A stretch of DNA of 20,242 nt from Eubacteriales bacterium. GTDB lineage: Bacteria; Bacillota; Clostridia; Christensenellales; DUVY01. The notes under the pieces were generated by a model, which was not told the origin of the DNA, made no database searches, and was given only the letters and a program-made list of their open reading frames with translations. The position numbers and the translations under genes are program-made. The stretch is from contig JAVBLK010000017.1 of assembly GCA_031553565.1 (NCBI GenBank), positions 1 to 20,242 on the forward strand. Reading direction: 5' to 3'. Positions 97-20,242 of the stretch are shown piece by piece (the stretch's first letter is position 1; each line of letters opens with the position of its first letter).

Positions 97-164
97 GCAG
101 CCTCTTATCACTCTTCCTTTCATGTTAACTTAACACTCCCACACATATAATAATTACAAATTAA

Positions 165-322
165 GGAACCGCTGAATAATTCGGAATAATTTACAGCTGC
201 GTCTTTTTCGCCTGAAAACGTCTTCTTTTTTTGCCAATAGTTCTACTATCTACTGCAAAAACAAGCCGTTTTCATGCTGAAAAATACTTGCTCTAAATTA
301 ACCTCATTTATTCATCGTTTCC
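165..322 (+). repeat. MITE-like ~158-bp repeat, copy A. The ~20-bp imperfect terminal inverted repeats are GGAACCGCTGAATAATTCGG ... (reverse complement) GGAAACGATGAATAAATGAGG. It contains the internal palindrome AATAGTTCTACTAT
   Basis: It aligns almost end to end with 8620-8778 in the same orientation and with 3758-3916 in inverted orientation. The termini are inverted repeats of each other (about 15 of 20 positions). Confidence 0.7.
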
Positions 323-545
323 TTGATTAATCATATCGACAGGCAGAATTGTCTATTGTTGTCTTAACACTTCACCACGCTGTCGTCCGCTGTCATGCTT
401 ACCGGCCAATATTTGGTTAATCATGTAATATTTATAACATTTTTGTTACATATTGTCAAACCTTACATGATTAAAAACCATGCAGATTAGTTATCGGGAT
501 AAAAACATGCGCGGATCATTTTGCATGAATAAAGAATAGAGCTTT

Positions 546-677: not shown

Positions 678-763
678 TGGTGGATGGAGGTGGATTCGAA
701 CCACCGTAGACGTGAGTCGGCAGATGTACAGTCTGCTCCCTTTGGCCGCTCGGGCATCCATCC
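678..763 (-). tRNA. tRNA-Tyr (anticodon GTA), long variable arm, CCA encoded
   Basis: The reverse complement folds as a cloverleaf. The anticodon stem is GCAGA/TCTGC with loop CTGTACA. The T-loop is GGTTCGAATCC and the 3' end is CCA. Length is 86 nt. Confidence 0.9.
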
Positions 764-919
764 AAATGAATGATATTTGATCTATATTCTTGGCCGCTTT
801 TAAGTCCGACCGAATTTTTATCAGATAAAAATTCGCGCCTGGTCGGAAAAACGCGCAGTGAGCATAAGAGCGCAGTTTTTCTTCGCAGAAGAAAACAAGC
901 AAAAGCGAAACGTAGCGTT

Positions 920-995
920 TGGAGCTGGAGATGGGAATTGAACCCGCAACCTGCTGATTACAAATCAGCTGCTCTGCCGATTGAGCTACTCCAGC
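920..995 (-). tRNA. tRNA-Thr (anticodon TGT), CCA encoded
   Basis: The reverse complement reads GCTGGAGTAGCTCAATCGGCAGAGCAGCTGATTTGTAATCAGCAGGTTGCGGGTTCAATTCCCATCTCCAGCTCCA. The anticodon loop is TTTGTAA. Confidence 0.9.
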
Positions 996-1151
996 AAATA
1001 TTTCAGTAGGCTTTCCGGCTTTCCGGCGGGGCAGGCTGTATTTGCATTGCCGGAGCCTTAACTCTATTCAAACTTCGTGCGCGTTCTTTGGCGAATGCGG
1101 CAAAGCCGCTTGCGGGTAATTGTCGTTTTCCGCAGTTTATATTGGGGTTTT

Positions 1152-1228
1152 TGGCGACCTGGAAGGGACTCGAACCCTCGACCTCTAGCGTGACAGGCTA
1201 GCGTTCTAACCAACTGAACTACCAGGCC
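1152..1228 (-). tRNA. tRNA-Asp (anticodon GTC), CCA encoded
   Basis: The reverse complement reads GGCCTGGTAGTTCAGTTGGTTAGAACGCTAGCCTGTCACGCTAGAGGTCGAGGGTTCGAGTCCCTTCCAGGTCGCCA. The anticodon loop is CTGTCAC. Confidence 0.9.
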
Positions 1229-1340
1229 AAAAATGTAACCGCTTTTTCTTTAGGGCAGCTTTCAGAAAAATTGCCGTCAAAAGAAAGCGTGTTTAGGCGC
1301 AGCTTTTCTCCGCAAATAAGCGGGAGAGAAGCGGAGCGTC

Positions 1341-1416
1341 TGGTGCCCCGGGGCGGAATCGAACCACCGACACAAGGATTTTCAGTCCTTTGCTCTACCG
1401 ACTGAGCTACCGGGGC
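1341..1416 (-). tRNA. tRNA-Phe (anticodon GAA), CCA encoded
   Basis: The reverse complement reads GCCCCGGTAGCTCAGTCGGTAGAGCAAAGGACTGAAAATCCTTGTGTCGGTGGTTCGATTCCGCCCCGGGGCACCA. The anticodon loop is CTGAAAA. Confidence 0.9.
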
Positions 1417-1440
1417 GAGGGGGCACGTTTTCAGGGCTTT

Positions 1441-1517
1441 TGGTGGGCCTTCACGGACTTGAACCGCGGACCAATCGGTTATGAGCCGACCGCTCTGACC
1501 AACTGAGCTAAAGGCCC
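1441..1517 (-). tRNA. tRNA with anticodon CAT: elongator tRNA-Met or the lysidine-modified tRNA-Ile2. The initiator is unlikely because position 1 pairs with 72 (G-C) and the anticodon stem lacks three consecutive G-C pairs
   Basis: The reverse complement reads GGGCCTTTAGCTCAGTTGGTCAGAGCGGTCGGCTCATAACCGATTGGTCCGCGGTTCAAGTCCGTGAAGGCCCACCA. The anticodon loop is CTCATAA. Confidence 0.85.
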
Positions 1518-1546
1518 TAATTAACGCTTGAACGCCCGGCAGCGGA

Positions 1547-1623
1547 TGGTCGGGGTGAAGAGACTCGAACTCCCGGCCCCATGCTCCCAAAGCACGTGCG
1601 CTACCAAACTGCGCTACACCCCG
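1547..1623 (-). tRNA. tRNA-Pro (anticodon TGG), CCA encoded
   Basis: The reverse complement reads CGGGGTGTAGCGCAGTTTGGTAGCGCACGTGCTTTGGGAGCATGGGGCCGGGAGTTCGAGTCTCTTCACCCCGACCA. The anticodon loop is TTTGGGA. Confidence 0.88.
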
Positions 1624-3739: not shown

Positions 3740-3757
3740 GGAGCAAATCAGTTTTGA

Positions 3758-3916
3758 GGAAACGATGAATAAATGAGGTTAATTTAGAGCAAGTATTTTT
3801 AAGTCAGAAAACGGCTTGTTTTTGCAGCAAATAGTAGAACTATTGGCAAGAAAAGAAGACGTTTTCATCCGAAAAAGACTTGCGCTATATATTTTGCTTA
3901 AATTTTCAGCGTTTCC
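3758..3916 (-). repeat. MITE-like repeat, copy B, inverted relative to copies A and C
   Basis: The reverse complement of 3758-3916 aligns with copy C at about 90% identity. Its terminal GGAAA overlaps the left inverted repeat of the adjacent IS by about 5 nt. Confidence 0.7.
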
Positions 3917-5196
3917 TTAACAAAGATGCGAATAAGTCTTTTAAGCAAAACATGCAATAGAGATAAATGTGATAAAATAATGATATGGAAAAGCAAGTAA
4001 GTTTTAGTGAACTTGAGTATAGCGGGAAACGGAAAAAGACAAAGCGGGAAATATTTCTTGAAGCAATGGAACAGATAGTACCGCTTGAAATGATGTGCGA
4101 AATAATAAGGCCGCATTATGCGGTAGCGGGGAACGGCAGACAGCCGATAGAGCTAAAAAAGATGATAAAGATGTATCTAATCAGCCAATGGTACAATTTA
4201 TCTGATGAAATGACCGAGGACACGATATACGAGAATCAAGCGGTACGGCGGTATGTGGGAATAGAGTTGGCGCAAGAGAATGCGCCTGATAGAACGACAT
4301 TAGGGAAATTTCGCGCAAGTCTGGAAAAGCACGGCTTGAACAAGAAAATTTTTGAGGAAATGAATAAGCGGTTTAAGGAACAAGGGATAATACTTCGGGA
4401 AGGAACAATAGTAGACGCAACCATAATACAAGCACCGGCATCAACGCGCAACAAAACTAAAAGCCGAGACCCGGAAATGAGCAGCACAAAAAAGAATAAC
4501 AACCATCATTTTGGTTTCAAAGCGCATATAGGCGTAGACAAAGAAAGCGGGCTAATACACGATATAGCTGTAACGACAGCGAAAACTGCAGACATAGAGG
4601 CGGCGGCAAGCGTAATGCACGGCGAAGAAAAAGAGATATTGGGCGATGCAGGTTTTATCGGTCTAGAAAAGCGAGAAGACATTATAAATAGATTTGGTCA
4701 AGAGCCGATAGAGAATCTGGCAATTGCCCCGATAAGAAGAGGGCCTAAAGCAAAAGTAAAACCGCAGCTAAAAAAAGAAATATGTGTAAAAATAAATAGG
4801 CGGCGCATGAAAATCCACAAAATGCCGGATGGCGAAGAAAAGGATCGGCTAAAAGCGGAAGAAAAAGCAAAGTCGCAAATACGCGCAAAGGTCGAGTATC
4901 CGTTTCGGATAATGAAAGTAATTTTTGGATTTAGAAAGACAAGATATAAGGGTCTTGATAAAAACGAAAATAAACTATATATGCTTTTTGGATTGGTCAA
5001 CCTCTATTTTGTTATGCAAAAAAACAAGTTGTCCACACAGAAAGCATAAAAAAGGTCAAAAAAACGAAATAAACCGGAAAAAATAAGAAAAGCAAAAAAG
5101 TATGTTCGATTAAAAAGGTTTTGAAGCGCCCTAATTGTCCACAAAAAACTTAGGACGCTTCCAAAACCTTACTTAATCGCATATTCGATAAGGAAA
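3912..5196 (+). mobile_element. IS5-family insertion sequence (~1.28 kb) with imperfect ~26-bp terminal inverted repeats (left TTTCCTTAACAAAGATGCGAATAAGT, right reverse complement TTTCCTTATCGAATATGCGATTAAGT)
   Basis: The terminal repeats match at 20 of 26 positions and flank a single DDE transposase ORF. The body is AT-rich compared with flanking genes. Confidence 0.75.
3985..5049 (+). CDS. IS5-family DDE transposase, 354 aa
   Basis: GTIVDATIIQAP, HFGFKAHIGVD and a C-terminal YKGL...N...LVNLY are the characteristic N2/N3/C1 blocks of IS5/IS1182-group transposases. Confidence 0.8.
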   Translation: MEKQVSFSELEYSGKRKKTKREIFLEAMEQIVPLEMMCEIIRPHYAVAGNGRQPIELKKMIKMYLISQWYNLSDEMTEDTIYENQAVRRYVGIELAQENAPDRTTLGKFRASLEKHGLNKKIFEEMNKRFKEQGIILREGTIVDATIIQAPASTRNKTKSRDPEMSSTKKNNNHHFGFKAHIGVDKESGLIHDIAVTTAKTADIEAAASVMHGEEKEILGDAGFIGLEKREDIINRFGQEPIENLAIAPIRRGPKAKVKPQLKKEICVKINRRRMKIHKMPDGEEKDRLKAEEKAKSQIRAKVEYPFRIMKVIFGFRKTRYKGLDKNENKLYMLFGLVNLYFVMQKNKLSTQKA

Positions 5197-8619: not shown

Positions 8620-8778
8620 AAAAAGTAAAGAAGTTTAGGAATCGCTGAATAATTCGATATAATTTAGTAGCGGCGTCTTTTTCGGATGAAAACGTCTTCT
8701 TTTATTGCCAATAGTTCTACTATTTGCTGCAAAAACAAGCCGTTTTCATACTGAAAAATACTTGCCCTAAATTAACCT
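8620..8778 (+). repeat. MITE-like repeat, copy C, flanked on both sides by TTTA
   Basis: It aligns with copy A over its whole length and has the same orientation. TTTA occurs at 8616-8619 and again at 8779-8782, a possible target-site duplication. Confidence 0.7.
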
Positions 8779-8854
8779 CATTTATTCATCGGTTCCTTTA
8801 AAGTAGATTTACTAAATTGTATTTTATGCGCCTTGTTAGCGGAGGATAGTACAT

Positions 8855-14867: not shown

Positions 14868-15404
14868 ATGCCGCTTGGAGTAGTGATAGGCACACTTGCC
14901 GCAGTAATATTAGTATGCATAGCTGTGATCGCTTTATGGATGTCACGATATAAGAAATGCCCGTCCGACAAGATTATGGTCATCTACGGTAAGGTCGGCG
15001 TCGATAAAGAGGGCAAACCAATAACGGCAAAGTGCTTGCACGGCGGCGCGGCATTTATTATGCCGGTAATCCAGGCCTACGCTTTCCTCGATCTTGCGCC
15101 TATCGGCATCGAGATCGCGCTGTCGCAGGAAGAGGGCAGCTTTAGGGGAACTTTCGCGGTCGCGGTTTCAACCGAGCCGGGGCTTATGCAATGCGCTGCC
15201 GAAAGGCTGATGGCGCTGTCCAGAAAAGATATTGCCGAGCTTGCGGACAGCATATTGCGCAGCCACGTACGCCAGATATTGTTTGATAAAAGCGCAGGCC
15301 GCCGCGAGATAGCGCAAACAATTGCGGAGGCAGCCGGGCCGGATCTAAATAAAGTAGGCCTCCATATTGTTAACGCAGACATTTCAGAATACAAGCTTAT
15401 ATAA
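14868..15404 (+). CDS. Short SPFH (band-7) domain protein, 178 aa. It is a diverged tandem paralogue of the N-terminal half of the downstream flotillin
   Basis: SRYKKCPSDKIMVIYGKVG...HGGAAFIMPVIQAYAFLDL parallels SRYKRCPADKILVIYGKVG...HGGAAFIMPVTQSFQFLDL in the next gene. It ends where the flotillin coiled-coil would begin. Its RBS is GAGGGAGA. Confidence 0.7.
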   Translation: MPLGVVIGTLAAVILVCIAVIALWMSRYKKCPSDKIMVIYGKVGVDKEGKPITAKCLHGGAAFIMPVIQAYAFLDLAPIGIEIALSQEEGSFRGTFAVAVSTEPGLMQCAAERLMALSRKDIAELADSILRSHVRQILFDKSAGRREIAQTIAEAAGPDLNKVGLHIVNADISEYKLI

Positions 15405-15448
15405 ATAGGCAAAGTATATAAAGCAACTTATAAAAGGAGAACGGAACA

Positions 15449-16870
15449 ATGGAATTAGGTGCAATCATCGGTATTATCCTTGCGGTCATTTTTGTTGTTG
15501 TCGCAGTTGTGCTTATTTGGGCGTCGCGCTATAAAAGGTGCCCGGCGGATAAGATCCTTGTTATCTACGGTAAGGTAGGCAAGAACAGCGCGGGCGGGAA
15601 CATCTCGGCAAAGTGTATTCACGGCGGCGCGGCCTTCATTATGCCCGTAACGCAGAGCTTTCAGTTCTTGGATCTTACGCCTATGTCGATCAGCGTCGAC
15701 CTTAAGAACGCGCTGTCGCGCCAGAACATACGTATCGACGTGCCCAGCCGCTTTACGGTCGCCATCTCGACCGAGCAGGGCGTTATGCAGAACGCTGCGG
15801 AAAGGCTGCTGCGCTTGAAGCTGCCCGAAATACAGGAGCTGGCTAAGGATATCATATTCGGACAATTACGTCTTGTCATCGCGCAGATGGAGATCGAGGA
15901 GATCAATACCGACCGCGATAAGTTTTTACAGGCGGTTTCGCAGAACGTGGAGACCGAGCTTAAGAAGATCGGTTTAAGGCTTATCAACGTCAACATAACC
16001 GACATCAACGACGAGAGCGGATATATCCAGGCGTTAGGCCGCGAGGCCGCCGCAAAGGCGATCAACGACGCGAAGAAGAGCGTTGCCGAAAAAGACCGCG
16101 ACGGCGCGATCGGACAGGCGAACGCGCAGAGGGACCAGCGTATCCAGGTATCCAACGCCAACGCTTTGGCGGTCGAGGGCGAAAACAAGGCCAAGGCCGA
16201 GATCGCCCAGTCCGACGCGACAAGGCGCGAGAAGGAGGCAGAAGCCTTAAAGCGCGCTATGGCGGCCGAAAAGGTGCAGGCGGCAAAAGCCTTGCAGGAA
16301 GCCTATGTGGCGCAGCAGCTGGCTGAAACCACCCGTGCAACACTTGAAAAGGCGACTTTGGCGGCGGACGTTATTGTAAAAGCCGATATCGAAAAGCAGA
16401 AGATCGAGATCGCAGCCGAGGCCGAGGCAGAGAACCTGCGCCGCAGGGCAAAGGGCGAGGCGGACGCTATCTTTGCAAAGATGCAGGCGCAGGCGAAAGG
16501 TATCAACGAGATGCTGACCAAGCAGGCGGACGGCTTAAAGGAAATCGTAAAGGCCGCGAACGGCAATCCCGATGCGGCAGTACGCCTTATGATAACCGAC
16601 AAGCTGGAGGATATCGTAAAGGTACAGGTCGAGGCGGTCAAGAACCTGAAGATCGACAAGGTCACCGTTTGGGACAGCATGGGCGGCGCGGGCGGAAGCG
16701 GCGCGCCCGCAACGGCGAACTTTTTGTCGGGAATGTTGAAGTCCGTACCACCCTTAAACGACCTCTACAAGATGGCGGGGCTGGAGCTGCCGGAATTTTT
16801 AGGCAAGCAACAGTCCGATGCGCCCGAAAAGCTTGACGCAGGCGAAAAGAAAGCGCCTGCCAAGAAGTAA
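15449..16870 (+). CDS. floT: Flotillin (FloT/YuaG-like) with an N-terminal membrane hairpin, an SPFH domain and a long Ala/Glu-rich coiled-coil, 473 aa
   Basis: SPFH blocks followed by EA-repeat coiled-coil (AEKDRDGAIGQANAQRDQRIQVS...AEAEAENLRRRAKGEADAIFAKMQAQAKG). The RBS is AAAAGGAGAA. Confidence 0.8.
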   Translation: MELGAIIGIILAVIFVVVAVVLIWASRYKRCPADKILVIYGKVGKNSAGGNISAKCIHGGAAFIMPVTQSFQFLDLTPMSISVDLKNALSRQNIRIDVPSRFTVAISTEQGVMQNAAERLLRLKLPEIQELAKDIIFGQLRLVIAQMEIEEINTDRDKFLQAVSQNVETELKKIGLRLINVNITDINDESGYIQALGREAAAKAINDAKKSVAEKDRDGAIGQANAQRDQRIQVSNANALAVEGENKAKAEIAQSDATRREKEAEALKRAMAAEKVQAAKALQEAYVAQQLAETTRATLEKATLAADVIVKADIEKQKIEIAAEAEAENLRRRAKGEADAIFAKMQAQAKGINEMLTKQADGLKEIVKAANGNPDAAVRLMITDKLEDIVKVQVEAVKNLKIDKVTVWDSMGGAGGSGAPATANFLSGMLKSVPPLNDLYKMAGLELPEFLGKQQSDAPEKLDAGEKKAPAKK

Positions 16871-16909
16871 GCAACAGGCAGAATTTGCCAGAAAACTGTT
16901 TATACTATA

Positions 16910-16943
16910 AATACCCTCCGGCGGTTGCCGGAGGGTATTTTCA
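16910..16943 (+). terminator. Rho-independent terminator (AATACCCTCCGGC-GGTT-GCCGGAGGGTATT + TTTCAT)
   Basis: A perfect 13-bp stem with a tetraloop. It marks the end of the GC-rich block. Confidence 0.8.
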
Positions 16944-17024
16944 TAAGCAAGGAATAGTTAAAACGTGTCGTGAGCACAGCCTCCGCCGCGATAAACTTGA
17001 AAATACTAGCGGAATAGAAAAGTT

Positions 17025-17753
17025 TTGACGGTAGCCATAGCGGCTGTTTTGCTTTGTTCTGTTTTAATTGGGTTTTCGGGGTGTAAAGAAAGATATAAGG
17101 AATTTGAGACGGAATATTTTAAATGCCGCGAGTATAAGGACAGAATCAATATTCCTGAATTGACATATTTGGGTAAGGAGCAAGAAATTCTTATTGTACC
17201 CGAAAAAATACGAGGAAAACCGGTTGCGCTGCTGGGGGAAACGGCAGTTTATTTGGATGGGGCGGGAAGTTATTCGCGCTGGAAAAGTGATAAACTTAAA
17301 AAGCTGTTTTTAAAGCGTAAGGCAAGAGCGCCATTAAGTAAGAACTGTTTTCCGAGCCTTGAAGGAATTTATGTTATAGGATTATCAAATGAGAATGGGT
17401 TAAGTAGCGAGATGTTTGATACGCAAGATGTAAAAATATATGTTCCTAATATATTTGAAAATACATATAATCACAGACTTTTTACTGCAAATGTCGGATA
17501 CTTATACAATTATGATGAAAGTCCGCAGTATGACTATTATTGGATAGATTACTATGCTTACGGCGCAAAGATAAATTATATTCCTCCTGTTCCGGAGCGG
17601 AATGGATATATTTTTTCCGGTTGGTATAAAGAAGCAGCTTGTGTCCTTGAATGGAATTTCGATTTTGGCACACTTCCTGCACCTATATTGGATGAAGATG
17701 GAGTAACAATATATCAAGAACTTAAACTATACGCCAAGTGGATCAAGAATTAG
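17025..17753 (+). CDS. Predicted lipoprotein with a C-terminal Listeria/Bacteroides-type repeat (GYxFxGWY...LYAKW) domain, 242 aa, TTG start (start uncertain)
   Basis: Signal peptide with lipobox FSGC. GYIFSGWYKEAACVLEWNFDFGTLP...IYQELKLYAKW matches the List_Bact repeat signature. The gene is AT-rich, unlike upstream genes. Confidence 0.55.
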   Translation: MTVAIAAVLLCSVLIGFSGCKERYKEFETEYFKCREYKDRINIPELTYLGKEQEILIVPEKIRGKPVALLGETAVYLDGAGSYSRWKSDKLKKLFLKRKARAPLSKNCFPSLEGIYVIGLSNENGLSSEMFDTQDVKIYVPNIFENTYNHRLFTANVGYLYNYDESPQYDYYWIDYYAYGAKINYIPPVPERNGYIFSGWYKEAACVLEWNFDFGTLPAPILDEDGVTIYQELKLYAKWIKN

Positions 17754-17781
17754 TACGATAAAAATTATAAGGGAGAAACAA

Positions 17782-18006
17782 ATGAGAAAATCTATTAAGC
17801 TGATTATAGCTATGGTTTTTGCAGTTTTTATCGCCTTTACAGCGTTCACTTTTATTAAGCCAGCTGAAGTGGCCGCGAATTCCGGCGTTTCGGGCGCGCC
17901 GACTGGACAAGCATTACTGAGTGCGACAAATACATATAATATCGATTATTTCAGCACACAGCCGTTGAATCGTGGTCAGGGGGACGTTTACCTTGACAGA
18001 GAATAG
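17782..18006 (+). CDS. Small secreted protein (74 aa) whose last 10 codons (GQGDVYLDRE) and stop codon are supplied by the left arm and loop of the hairpin repeat. Probably a truncated gene
   Basis: Signal peptide MRKSIKLIIAMVFAVFIAFTAFTF. The C-terminus is identical to that of ORF 19011-20066 and is encoded by repeat sequence starting at 17974. Confidence 0.5.
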   Translation: MRKSIKLIIAMVFAVFIAFTAFTFIKPAEVAANSGVSGAPTGQALLSATNTYNIDYFSTQPLNRGQGDVYLDRE

Positions 18007-18052
18007 AGAGATTGAGGCTTATAGTCCTGTCAAGGTAAACGTCCCCCTGACC
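17974..18052. repeat. Hairpin repeat, copy 1. Perfect 26-bp inverted arms (GGTCAGGGGGACGTTTACCTTGACAG / CTGTCAAGGTAAACGTCCCCCTGACC) are separated by a 27-nt spacer. It is the first part of a duplicated module of at least 227 bp (17974-18200 nearly identical to 20034-20242)
   Basis: The arms are exact reverse complements at 17974-17999 and 18027-18052. The second copy at 20034-20112 differs by one spacer base. Confidence 0.9.
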
Positions 18053-18083
18053 ACTTTGATACGTTGCCTGAAAACGTGCGTGA

Positions 18084-18338
18084 ATGATGGAGCAGAAGAC
18101 ATACAATTGGCTTGAGCATGAGGATAAGGTTTATGAGGCCTTTGGCAATGTGCTGACAGAACTAGTAAATAAATATAAAATTGATGATAAAAAAGCTTTG
18201 AAGGACGACGAGTTGCTAAAACGGATAGGGATTGAACTGCGAAACCGTACGGGCGCGAGTAAGAGACTGATAGCGCAAAAGCTGGAAATCGATCGGGAAC
18301 GGGTAAGAAAACTGCTGTCAATTGCCCCGTCCCCGTGA
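18084..18338 (+). CDS. Small helix-turn-helix protein, 84 aa. The C-terminal HTH resembles sigma-70 region 4 and the HTH of IS630/transposase helper proteins. The first ~32 codons are duplicated at 20145
   Basis: LLKRIGIELRNRTGASKRLIAQKLEIDRERVRKLL shows the HTH pattern. The gene start lies inside the duplicated module, 32 nt after the hairpin. Confidence 0.55.
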   Translation: MMEQKTYNWLEHEDKVYEAFGNVLTELVNKYKIDDKKALKDDELLKRIGIELRNRTGASKRLIAQKLEIDRERVRKLLSIAPSP

Positions 18339-18359
18339 CACTGTGGATTTCCGTTTGCG

Positions 18360-18383
18360 TTTACAGAATAAATATGTTATAAT
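18360..18383 (+). promoter_or_regulatory. Extended -10 promoter (TGTTATAAT) upstream of the lipoprotein gene
   Basis: The TGnTATAAT consensus at 18375-18383 is perfect. The -35-like TTTACA is too close (12 nt), so the call rests on the extended -10. Confidence 0.45.
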
Positions 18384-18502
18384 GCATTTGTAAGATGGTG
18401 TTTTTTTACTCTTTTGCAGGCTCGCGAATATAATATACTGGAATGCTTTAAGGTTTGCACCTACAATGAGGTTGTAAGCCGACGTAAAAAGGGAGGTTCA
18501 AA

Positions 18503-18955
18503 ATGACAAAGAAATTAGCAAAAATTCTGATAATGGGGGTGCTGATAATAATGGCAATTGGGCTATTTACAGCTTGTGGCGACAAGGATTGGAGCAAAGA
18601 TTTCGATTTGTCCGACGAAAAAATCGTTTGGGATGAATCGACTTATGTTGACGACGAACATACGACGCCTGACAAATTGATTGTTAAATTCAAAAGCACA
18701 GACACATACCCTTATTTAAAGTTGCGAGATTTCAAGATGTCAAATGCAAAGGGGTTTGTTTATACAAATTTGAATCCCAATGAGGGTGAGTTGTATTATG
18801 ATGGCTGGCGTCAAAGCGGAGAAATTGCTTTGAAAAAAACAGATAAGCAAAGCATAATTGCAGCGATAAGACACATAGAAACATTGCCATTCATTAAATC
18901 GGTTCAGCAGATGCAGAACATTCCAGTTGACAATTCCGTAATGACAATTCCGTAA
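18503..18955 (+). CDS. Predicted lipoprotein, 150 aa, no recognisable domain
   Basis: Signal peptide with lipobox LFTAC. GGAGG Shine-Dalgarno 7 nt upstream. AT-rich codon usage. Confidence 0.55.
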   Translation: MTKKLAKILIMGVLIIMAIGLFTACGDKDWSKDFDLSDEKIVWDESTYVDDEHTTPDKLIVKFKSTDTYPYLKLRDFKMSNAKGFVYTNLNPNEGELYYDGWRQSGEIALKKTDKQSIIAAIRHIETLPFIKSVQQMQNIPVDNSVMTIP

Positions 18956-19010
18956 TGGTAGATTTAGCAAATATAAAACACAAAAAAATAAAAATCTGGA
19001 GAAAAATTAA

Positions 19011-20066
19011 ATGAGAACCGAAACACTTTTCAAGAGACAATGGAAAATTTCGGTTATAGCACTGGTGTTAATAGTACTTGTCGCAAGTATATTGTGTGCA
19101 ACAATTCCAACAACAGCATACGCAAAAGAAGTAGATTTTGCGGAAAATACAATTCAGCGACGAATTCCAACACTTAATGACGATTTTGACGATAGCAAAG
19201 TTATTGTTGTTCTTAACCAAAAGAATAGTAAATACAATGGTGTAGTTAGAATTGAGGATTTTAAGATAGACGTAGAAAAGGCAAGTCTGGTTAATACTCA
19301 ACGGACTGAACGTTTAGATAGAAGCGATGATTCCGCTACGGATGCAGTTAAAACTGGACAAGCAGTAGTCACCGACCTTTTTCGGGTAGATAATGCGAAA
19401 AGTAGTAGTTTGGTGAGCGAAAGCGAGTTTTTTCAAATACTATCTATTGATTTGCCTATAAGAGGAAAAGAAAAGGTTCTTGAGGCGATAGCAGAGCTTA
19501 AAAAATCTGAGATAGTTTATTCTGCTGAGCCAGATTATCGTTACGAAACGATTGATTTGTGGGCACCTAACGATACGAACTATACCACTAGTCAGTGGGG
19601 GTTAACGGGAACAAATGGGATACAAGCAGCAAATGCTTGGGATATGACGCGAGGTCTTGCTGATATTAGAGTGGGCTTATTTGAAACAGGTGCGCAGCAA
19701 AATCACCCCGACCTAGACGGCAGGTTTTTGGCACCAAATTTTACATTAGGTAATGCAGACCATGGAACTCACGTTGCAGGAATTGTGGGTGCCATTTCAA
19801 ATAATAATCAAGGAGTAGCAGGCGTTTCACAATCTAATATGATGTTGCTAAATCGCAATTCAAACGATTTTGTTGACAGCATGGCAAGGGCTGCAAATAA
19901 TAATATTTGGGTTATCAACGCTAGTTACGAGTACATAAGCGGTGGCGTAATAGAAAATCACGCAGTTGCAATACATAATTACCAAGGTTTGCTCGTGTGC
20001 GCCGCAGGCAACAGCACTGCAGATATTGATAATGGTCAGGGGGACGTTTACCTTGACAGAGAATAG
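19011..20066 (+). pseudogene. Subtilisin-like (S8) serine protease with a signal peptide and an I9 propeptide. It is truncated after the oxyanion-hole Asn region by the hairpin repeat, so the catalytic Ser block is missing, and it has Glu at the catalytic Asp position
   Basis: The His block HGTHVAGIVGA and the Asn block LVCAAGNS are present. The Asp-block position reads GLFETGAQQNHPDL. The ORF ends with GQGDVYLDRE-stop, which is encoded by the repeat from 20034. No GTSMA block appears before the window ends. Confidence 0.6.
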
Positions 20067-20112
20067 AGAGATTGAGGCTTCTAGTCCTGTCAAGGTAAAC
20101 GTCCCCCTGACC
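20034..20112. repeat. Hairpin repeat, copy 2 (same 26-bp perfect arms, 27-nt spacer with one substitution)
   Basis: The arm and spacer sequence is identical to 17974-18052 except for A to C in the spacer. Downstream similarity continues to the window end, with a single inserted A. Confidence 0.9.
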
Positions 20113-20144
20113 ACTTTGATACGTTGCCTGAAAACGTGCGTGAA

Positions 20145-20242
20145 ATGATGGAGCAGAAGACATACAATTGGCTTGAGCATGAGGATAAGGTTTATGAGGC
20201 CTTTGGCAATGTGCTGACAGAACTAGTAAATAAATATAAAAT
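20145..20242 (+). CDS. Second copy of the small HTH protein gene (5' part only, cut off by the window end)
   Basis: It translates to MMEQKTYNWLEHEDKVYEAFGNVLTELVNKYKI, which is identical to the N-terminus of ORF 18084-18338. Confidence 0.5.
   Translation, partial: MMEQKTYNWLEHEDKVYEAFGNVLTELVNKYK

Follow-up and report, generated by a model that had tools for sequence, protein, structure and literature searches.

Why two genes with nothing else in common should end in the same ten codons and the same stop codon is the question raised by contig JAVBLK010000017.1 of a Eubacteriales bacterium (assembly GCA_031553565.1; Bacillota, Clostridia). The window analyzed here is this entire NCBI contig of 20,242 bp, whose right end cuts through the second of two copies of the sequence in question. 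A first-pass annotation, made from the letters alone, had described a hairpin followed by a small helix-turn-helix (HTH) gene, which occurs twice and gives a common tail to two unrelated open reading frames (ORFs). We found that this module (17973-18341, 369 bp) is probably a non-autonomous unit in which two decayed members of a single transposon family are combined; the gene of this family encodes a Y1/HUH transposase. The observation is ordinary mobile-DNA biology, that is, transposon debris of a catalogued type, and involves no new recombination system.

The recurring hairpin module itself is real, and both copies were recovered. They form a direct duplication of 17973-18181 at 20033-20242 with an identity of 209/210 nt; one substitution, within the loop (a at 18021 vs c at 20081), and one indel (AA at 18083-84 vs AAA at 20143-45) distinguish them. 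A repeat search placed the inverted repeat of copy 1 at 17972-17999 and 18027-18054, with 28-nt arms that are 100% complementary and 27 nt between them, and that of copy 2 at 20033-20059 and 20087-20113, with arms of 27 nt. The inverted repeat is therefore as perfect as first described, while its arms, given previously as 26 bp, are 2 nt longer each in copy 1. Likewise, the left boundary is as sharp as had been stated, but similarity begins at T17973/T20033 (TGGTCAG), one base before the GGTCAG from which the module had been counted. Folding of the hairpin region, which had been suggested as a check on the 79-nt segment, gave a highly stable structure both as RNA (-62.1 kcal/mol, z = -9.6) and as DNA (-36.5 kcal/mol, z = -10.7), and 0/200 shuffles were equally stable in either case. 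The tail GQGDVYLDRE plus TAG was confirmed in both copies as the end of the two upstream ORFs of 74 and 351 aa.

The nature of the hairpin follows from the homology of its arms with the terminal repeats found in Y1 transposons; the earlier view of a mobile-element end, and not a terminator, is thereby borne out. Elements of this family are ~850 bp long and carry a single gene of 250 aa between terminal inverted repeats of 27-28 bp (consensus TGGTCA[G/A]GGGGACG-N7-TGACA), the right one of which overlaps the last codons. In the encoded protein, a Y1/HUH nuclease core that resembles REP (repetitive extragenic palindromic)-associated tyrosine transposases (RAYTs) occupies the N-terminal part and an HTH domain the C-terminal part. 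When public collections were scanned with TGGTCARGGGGACG-N7-TGACA, the repeat was found at 14 loci in species-representative genomes, mostly metagenome-assembled genomes (MAGs) of Bacillota/Clostridia, and on 29 metagenome contigs; the viral contigs gave 0 matches. The complete order of left repeat, Y1 gene with its core, and right repeat over the stop codon was observed at four of these loci (L003, L012, L029 and L035). In L003 the gene is disrupted and lies between TGGTCAGGGGGACGGAGGTATTGACAAC and an inverted partner, GTTGTCAGTACCTCCGTCCCCCTGACCA (27/28 complementary), which overlaps the last codons, LSVPPSP plus stop. Gene-less doublets, in which 0-17 nt separate the left repeat from the right one, were present at L006, L016, L034, L038 and L040, and solo repeat ends were common. 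In WRCD01, a Bacillota MAG from termite gut, the sites number at least four, and among them L012 alone holds a full-length gene. Target duplication was not seen at any element examined, as expected from the single-strand chemistry of Y1/HUH enzymes.

In many relatives we also noticed that a short outermost segment (9-30 nt) of a terminal repeat is duplicated in tandem (L012 6162-6250; L035 ~4030-4085; L007 4585-4630; L017 6253-6295; L026 9492-9537; L034 6769-6820; L001 2001-2020), and the duplication in L035 takes in 19 nt of flank. These duplications may be footprints of abortive or repeated cleavage and joining of the ends.

One relative, the 846-bp element at L035, is informative about the origin of the hairpin. 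Window 17973-18012 can be aligned with the first ~40 nt of this element (TGGTCAATGGGACGCTTACCTTGACAGAGGATAA...), and window 18010-18053 with the last ~44 nt (...GGTTGAGGATGTTAGTCCTGTCAAGGTAAGCGTCCCCTTGACCA, encoding ...RMLVLSR plus stop); repeats of this type follow the pattern TGGTCA.GGGGACG[CT]TTACCTTGACAG. The left part of the spacer aligns just inside the L035 left repeat, and the right part, GATTGAGGCTTATAGTC, aligns to the last L035 transposase codons. Because the L035 match extends into the loop from both sides, the 81-nt hairpin is a miniature internal-deletion derivative of an L035-type element, consisting of left repeat, 27 nt and right repeat. Retention of both ends with deletion of the interior is the classic route by which miniature inverted-repeat transposable elements (MITEs) originate. 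Thus, what had been regarded as a single hairpin end is better described as a complete miniature element, although the sharp terminus by which it adjoins two different genes is confirmed.

The 84-aa ORF downstream of the hairpin, whose ATG lies 29 nt past the 28-bp arm, is the 3' remnant of a Y1-transposase gene and covers its C-terminal HTH domain. On its own, this ORF yielded only sub-threshold noise in Pfam and NCBIfam (Vhr1, IS21 HTH, RecX), a word-indexed protein search retrieved only the ORF itself, and an exact look-up of the protein found no record. An exhaustive HMMER search with the same ORF retrieved 17 proteins. The long matches among them (241-257 aa) align via their last ~85 residues, with 36-54% identity, and carry PF01797 (Y1_Tnp, IS200-like) at the N-terminus. 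With NF047646, the model for REP-associated tyrosine transposases (cut-off 80), these long relatives reached 79.8, 79.4 and 75.7 bits, and with NF033573 (IS200/IS605; cut-off 55) only a weak 25 bits. They also give weak matches to HTH families of Pfam, and their sole sequence relative in PDB is E. coli TnpA-REP (4er8). In the AlphaFold model of the 84-aa ORF (pLDDT 75) five helices are present, and the best Foldseek matches are HTH DNA-binding domains of DeoR, LsrR/SorC and sigma region 4, all of them weak (E at least 0.58). The HTH-type fold assigned by the first-pass annotation is therefore favored by weak fold matches, whereas its reading as a stand-alone gene is not supported, and the same applies to the suggestion that the protein is an independent helper, sigma-like or recombination directionality factor gene.

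Several details of the two copies bear on the state of this remnant. In copy 2, only 32 codons of the HTH ORF are visible before the contig ends at 20242; the extra A at 20143-45 keeps the frame open upstream back to 20085, through the right arm, and this frame reads HFDTLPENVREMMEQ (...HFDTLPENVREMMEQKT), matching LFDTCPKNMRANMMEK (...LFDTCPKNMRANMMEKS) of the relative P0005. Homology to the transposase (HFDTLPENVRE) therefore extends to the hairpin edge. In copy 1 a deletion of 1 nt at 18083/84, relative to copy 2, closes the upstream frame; this indel (18083-18084 vs 20143-20145) fits a decaying pseudogene better than a conserved small gene. A tblastn search with seven full-length relatives found the C-terminal part at 18084-18335 only and no Y1 core in the window, so that the unit is a non-autonomous derivative. 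Reading of the sequence showed no evident Shine-Dalgarno motif upstream of the ATG at 18084. Short C-terminal forms that stand alone are encoded on other contigs (P0003, 85 aa; P0004, 93 aa; P0019, 97 aa), and the short form at L001 has kept degraded coding sequence upstream. Given the lack of an evident ribosome-binding site, the frameshifting indel near the start and the appearance of the short forms elsewhere as products of decay or deletion, the 84-aa ORF is most likely a relic and not a working gene. A second route to a mini-element of repeat plus HTH domain was observed at L004 (4017-4251), where a ~235-bp deletion derivative has its left repeat fused in frame (…YGQGDVVREYEE…) to the HTH domain and right repeat, which generates the 97-aa ORF P0019.

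The remnant and the hairpin do not come from the same lineage of the family: protein identity between the remnant and the L035 C-terminus is as low as 45%, and the remnant ends in a different right repeat (IRR'); therefore two family lineages are juxtaposed here.

The limits of the repeated unit could be read from the Logan assembly of SRR23967709, which uses k = 31 and contains each 31-mer once by construction (PMC12424806). Contig L050 of this assembly is identical to window 14955-18002 and stops 30 nt into the left repeat, which places a branch between 17972 and 17973. Contig L049, identical to window 18312-20061, starts 30 nt (k-1) before the 18341/18342 boundary; a branch after 18341 means that ...GTGACAC continues into at least two different sequences in the reads. 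In the window, the right end of the unit reads ...CGTCCCCGTGACAC (...CCCCGTCCCCGTGACAC), followed by TGTGGATTTCC. With the left inverted repeat (IRL) bounding the repeat node on one side and IRR' on the other, the repeated unit is 17973-18341, 369 bp, and the contig ends thus support the presence of a discrete unit at two or more sites. Both gene/repeat junctions are reproduced in the SRR23967709 assembly with 0 mismatches, and this independent recovery answers the concern, raised at first pass, that the duplication might be an assembly artefact.

In the simplest history, a miniature element would have inserted into the transposase gene of an older family copy. The left repeat of the miniature and the right repeat of the older copy could then have acted as the ends of a new unit, and a family transposase encoded elsewhere in the genome may have moved this composite in trans. 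Movement would have followed the "peel and paste" route of Y1 enzymes, with single-stranded DNA and without target duplication, and the composite unit would have landed once in the 74-aa ORF and once in the subtilase gene. Single-strand cleavage and joining have been established for the Y1/HUH enzymes of IS608 and ISDra2 and for TnpA-REP (PMC6006769). Among the options listed by the first-pass annotation, it is the Y1/HUH world (IS200/IS605 - RAYT/REPIN) that is supported, by homology of both the arm and the remnant.

The answer to the opening question is then simple: the shared 10-codon tail is read-through, produced when a ribosome translating the host gene continues in that frame into the left repeat. 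In copy 1, the frame of the upstream 74-aa ORF runs on through the IRL and gives GQGDVYLD there, and subterminal sequence supplies the TAG; an in-frame capture of coding sequence, as proposed before, is not supported. The 351-aa ORF matches Peptidase_S8 at profile positions 4-158/288 only and is therefore a truncated subtilase. It is cut after the AAGN region, in the middle of the catalytic domain, and the half with the catalytic Ser is missing.

Several observations weigh against the composite-unit interpretation. IRR' matches IRL at only 18/27 positions, with the conserved blocks retained. The inference from contig ends presumes the standard k-1 overlap of de Bruijn contigs, and the right end of L049 lies 29 nt, not 30 nt, into copy 2; as a speculation, a third copy with a flank also ending in A would fit this 1-nt shortfall. 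The right flank of copy 2 lies off the contig, so neither a complete second unit nor the remainder of the subtilase is seen. An empty-site test with a reconstructed 80-aa protein (the 64 residues of the 74-aa ORF's own sequence plus the frame after IRR') returned only the window's own ORF. The arm search proposed by the first-pass annotation was productive for the consensus repeat, with the genome and metagenome loci given above, but the exact 21-mer of the window arm, GGGGGACGTTTACCTTGACAG, had 0 matches in other genome or metagenome contigs. In addition, neither PMC3733652 nor PMC6006769 reports experimental transposition of a family of this type.

These points have to be balanced against what other explanations can offer. 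There might have been a single insertion, into the 74-aa ORF, with copy 2 arising from a segmental or tandem duplication of the 2,060 bp at 17973-20032 whose junction fell by chance at the repeat terminus; in that case copy 2 would be followed by an intact subtilase gene. The direct orientation of the nearly identical copies, their distance of 2,060 bp and the unseen right flank of copy 2 all agree with such an event, and the contig ends 99 nt past the last difference, as it would when an assembler re-enters a repeat. We nevertheless consider it unlikely, since the junction lies exactly at the family terminus T/GGTCA, where the end of a random duplication would not fall, and since the k = 31 branch at 18341/18342, the IRR' terminus, is unpredicted by a pure tandem duplication. 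A collapsed or chimeric join at the repeat, which would make copy 2 an artefact of assembly, is very improbable: although copy 2 runs up to the contig end and its final 99 nt, which match 18083-18181 exactly, resemble a k-mer overlap, its first 111 nt differ from copy 1 at two positions, and the junction of subtilase and IRL recurs without mismatch in L049, a contig of an independent assembly by other software and with another k. The composite of two transposon copies remains our preferred interpretation of the duplicated structure.

It is also quite improbable that the module has been kept for a function, either through the 84-aa HTH protein as a trans-acting regulator (an inhibitor or helper derived from a truncated transposase) or through the hairpin as an RNA 3'-end stabilizer or terminator. 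The 84-aa ORF is intact in copy 1, short stand-alone forms recur (P0003, P0004, P0019), the hairpin is very stable as RNA, and REP-type repeats are known to influence mRNA stability (PMC3733652). Against this stand the lack of an evident Shine-Dalgarno sequence and the frameshifting indel right at the start, the resemblance of the short forms elsewhere to decay products (degraded upstream coding sequence in L001, in-frame deletion fusion in L004) and the absence of a U tract. An intrinsic terminator was rejected, as had been argued at first pass: the hairpin is followed by CTTTGATACG, and a terminator scan was blank at 17972-18054 and 20033-20113. A hairpin-forming site at the 3' end of two genes would give a common tail in a site-specific recombination system as well, such as the boundary of an integron attC-like cassette, which was among the options first listed, or a shufflon-type swap of 3' ends. 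However, the stem is perfect (28/28) and has no extrahelical bases, the arms are homologous to the ends of Y1 transposons, no integrase or other recombinase was detected among the 24 ORFs scanned, and the shared tail amounts to only 10 codons of the repeat; we regard this explanation as hardly tenable. Two further candidates were discarded, namely a diversity-generating retroelement with variable and template repeats, because the repeat spans only 10 codons of the target genes, and a protelomerase telomere site, because the palindrome has a 27-nt spacer. Rfam at gathering thresholds reported only tRNAs over the window.

The family to which the composite would belong has counterparts in the literature. 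Di Nocera et al. (2013) described RAYT-like genes with long terminal inverted repeats instead of REPs, named TIRYTs or TIRtrons, whose repeats overlap the gene ends, carry a G-run motif and form moderately abundant families as singles, dimers and clusters (PMC3733652). Most TIRYTs were later placed by Quentin et al. (2018) in TnpA-Y1 subclass 2.1, for which an additional HTH-type domain at the C-terminus is the defining feature (PMC6006769), and one RAYT group reaches into Clostridia (Bertels et al., 2017; PMC5581495). Our family fits the TIRYT/TIRtron type, that is, subclass 2.1, on the basis of shared features rather than phylogeny. Its gene resembles those of RAYT Y1/HUH transposases with an extra C-terminal HTH-type domain and lies between long G-run inverted repeats, the 3' one overlapping the gene end (L003, L012, L029, L035), just as IRR' in the window overlaps LSIAPSP plus stop; within one genome, moreover, single repeats, dimers and clusters are all found. 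Compared with the published motif GGGG[AT][CG]A[CG] (PMC6006769), the window sequence GGGGACGT agrees at 6/8 positions and the family consensus GGGGACGG at 7/8. On the other hand, the window has no transposase core but only a gene-less doublet and a 3' gene remnant, and the published sets have not been described as interrupting coding genes.

Similarity to REPIN-RAYT systems (Bertels & Rainey, 2011, PMC3116915; Bertels et al., 2017, PMC5581495) is also apparent, in that two inverted transposase-flanking repeats form a long gene-less hairpin, a non-autonomous doublet presumably mobilized in trans by a Y1 transposase. The scores of the full-length relatives lie slightly below the cut-off of the NCBIfam model for RAYTs. 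Unlike REPINs, which are extragenic, both window copies are intragenic and the copy number looks low; moreover, the transposase family seems to be insertion sequence (IS)-like, with decayed and duplicated copies, and not a single-copy domesticated gene. The single arms were also tried as REP-type palindromes and rejected, since their folding is no more stable than that of shuffled sequences (z = -0.3 to -1.7) and a GTAG head is absent. With the classical IS200/IS605 elements the family shares the Y1/HUH fold (PF01797) and the lack of target-site duplication at the ends. However, classical members have no terminal inverted repeats but distinct subterminal hairpins at the left and right ends, and their TnpA is ~150 aa without an HTH domain, in contrast to ~250 aa here. 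The earlier suggestion of a classical IS200/IS605 end is thus not upheld, in agreement with the low NF033573 score. MITEs of, e.g., the Correia/NEMIS type resemble the hairpin in having kept both parental terminal repeats while losing the interior, and in being units (81-83 bp in our case) that fold as hairpins and can be co-transcribed with neighboring genes, but the parent here is a Y1 single-strand transposon and not a DDE element, and no target duplication flanks it.

TIRYT/subclass 2.1 Y1 genes have been catalogued from genome surveys only, and their mobility was inferred, not shown. What is new here is evidence for recent mobility of such a family into genes, together with a bias of reading frame at the repeat ends. 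This locus would be a natural example of a miniature doublet formed from a full-length element by clean internal deletion, of a nested composite that takes one end from each of two family members, and of copies with sharp ends that break into protein-coding genes, including one for a subtilase. The pattern argues for a family that behaves like an active insertion sequence in gut-type Clostridia rather than a domesticated REP system. A consequence for annotation is that small "HTH proteins" after a strong hairpin and odd common C-terminal tails can be transposon debris.

The bias just mentioned came from a frame survey of 57 distinct repeat ends, which comprised all loci L001-L047 as well as window 17973 and 20033. 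At least 60 open codons enter from outside at 20-22 of the 57 ends; in 16 of these cases the frame is that found in the window and reads xGQGD(G/V)..D. For the ends that clearly belong to the family, the frames were represented at 9 : 2 : 1 (binomial P ~0.004 for this frame and ~0.012 for any frame). At L040, for instance, a RhuM-like ORF is cut at ...KGFALN followed by GQGDVSLDQRSKYNI and stop, directly upstream of a gene-bearing element. The entering frame stops a few codons after GQGD(G/V)..D, which in full-length elements is just upstream of the transposase start. We doubt that the left end is built for entry by translation of the host gene in one particular frame; if it were, this would mean either frame-selective targeting or retention, or a promoter-less Y1 transposase that is translationally coupled to the interrupted gene. 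Part of the bias may be trivial, in that coding DNA of GC-rich contigs may have yielded some of the solo matches by chance, and the sequence GGT-CAG-GGG-GAC-GGN carries the GNN periodicity of coding frames, a possible source of such a bias.

The positions of all features of the two copies and of the interrupted ORFs are summarized in Table 1.

Table 1. Components of the composite unit and host ORFs, in window coordinates
Feature	Start	End	Strand	Remarks
74-aa ORF	17782	18006	+	Signal-peptide-like N-terminus; last 10 codons and stop from IRL and spacer
IRL, miniature element copy 1	17973	17999	+	TGGTCAGGGGGACGTTTACCTTGACAG; matches family consensus, aligns to L035 left end
Spacer (loop), 27 nt	18000	18026	+	Subterminal leftovers of both parent-element ends; TAG stop at 18004-18006
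Right inverted repeat (IRR), miniature element copy 1	18027	18053	+	CTGTCAAGGTAAACGTCCCCCTGACCA; corresponds to last codons (LSR plus stop) and end of L035-type transposase gene
3' third of second, more distant Y1-transposase gene (C-terminal HTH domain)	18055	18338	+	ORF of 84 aa at 18084-18338
Degenerate right repeat IRR' of remnant	18315	18341	+	CTGTCAATTGCCCCGTCCCCGTGACAC; overlaps LSIAPSP plus stop; right limit of repeated unit
Truncated subtilase, 351-aa ORF	19011	20066	+	Last 10 codons and stop from IRL and spacer
Miniature element copy 2	20033	20113	+	IRL 20033-20059, spacer, IRR 20087-20113; within subtilase gene
Transposase-gene remnant copy 2, start only	20115	20242	+	Ended by contig end

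No homologues of the 74-aa ORF were found, and an exact look-up of the truncated subtilase sequence gave no record. Both ORFs lie in a region, from ~16,900 to the contig end, with a G+C content of 36-41%, compared with 50-58% over most of the contig. This block (~16,900-20,242) comes after a terminator-like hairpin 3' of the flotillin gene. All of its products are secreted or lipoprotein-like: besides the 74-aa ORF and the subtilase, they comprise a Flg_new-repeat protein and a lipoprotein of 150 aa. The block was probably acquired horizontally, as an islet, which may account for the toleration of transposon copies there.

Upstream of this block, two adjacent paralogous SPFH/Band-7 (flotillin-like) genes (14868-15404 and 15449-16870) contain DNA stretches that are 76-77% identical. 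The same gene pair is present in a Eubacteriales MAG (L017 3161-5256) with 66% aa identity, where a repeat of the transposon family is located ~1 kb away; this shared pair allows an approximate taxonomic assignment of the window. The contig further carries an unrelated miniature element in three ~162-nt copies, at 163-324 (+), 3756-3918 (-) and 8636-8798 (+), with a mean column identity of 87% and ~17-nt terminal inverted repeats, AAGGAAnCGnTGAATAA, the pattern of which has 6 matches vs 0.06 expected by chance. One of these copies lies directly upstream of a DDE transposase ORF. A 354-aa ORF at 3985-5049 (+), with DDE_Tnp_1 and DUF772 domains, represents an IS5/IS1182-like insertion sequence; the G+C content is lower around it, and it is flanked by a sigma-factor gene on one side and the DUF1385-PrmC/RF1 genes on the other. 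Six tRNA genes (Tyr, Thr, Asp, Phe, Met and Pro) are clustered at 678-1623 (-), close to where the contig begins on the left; the Rfam gathering scan reported five of the six and missed tRNA-Tyr.

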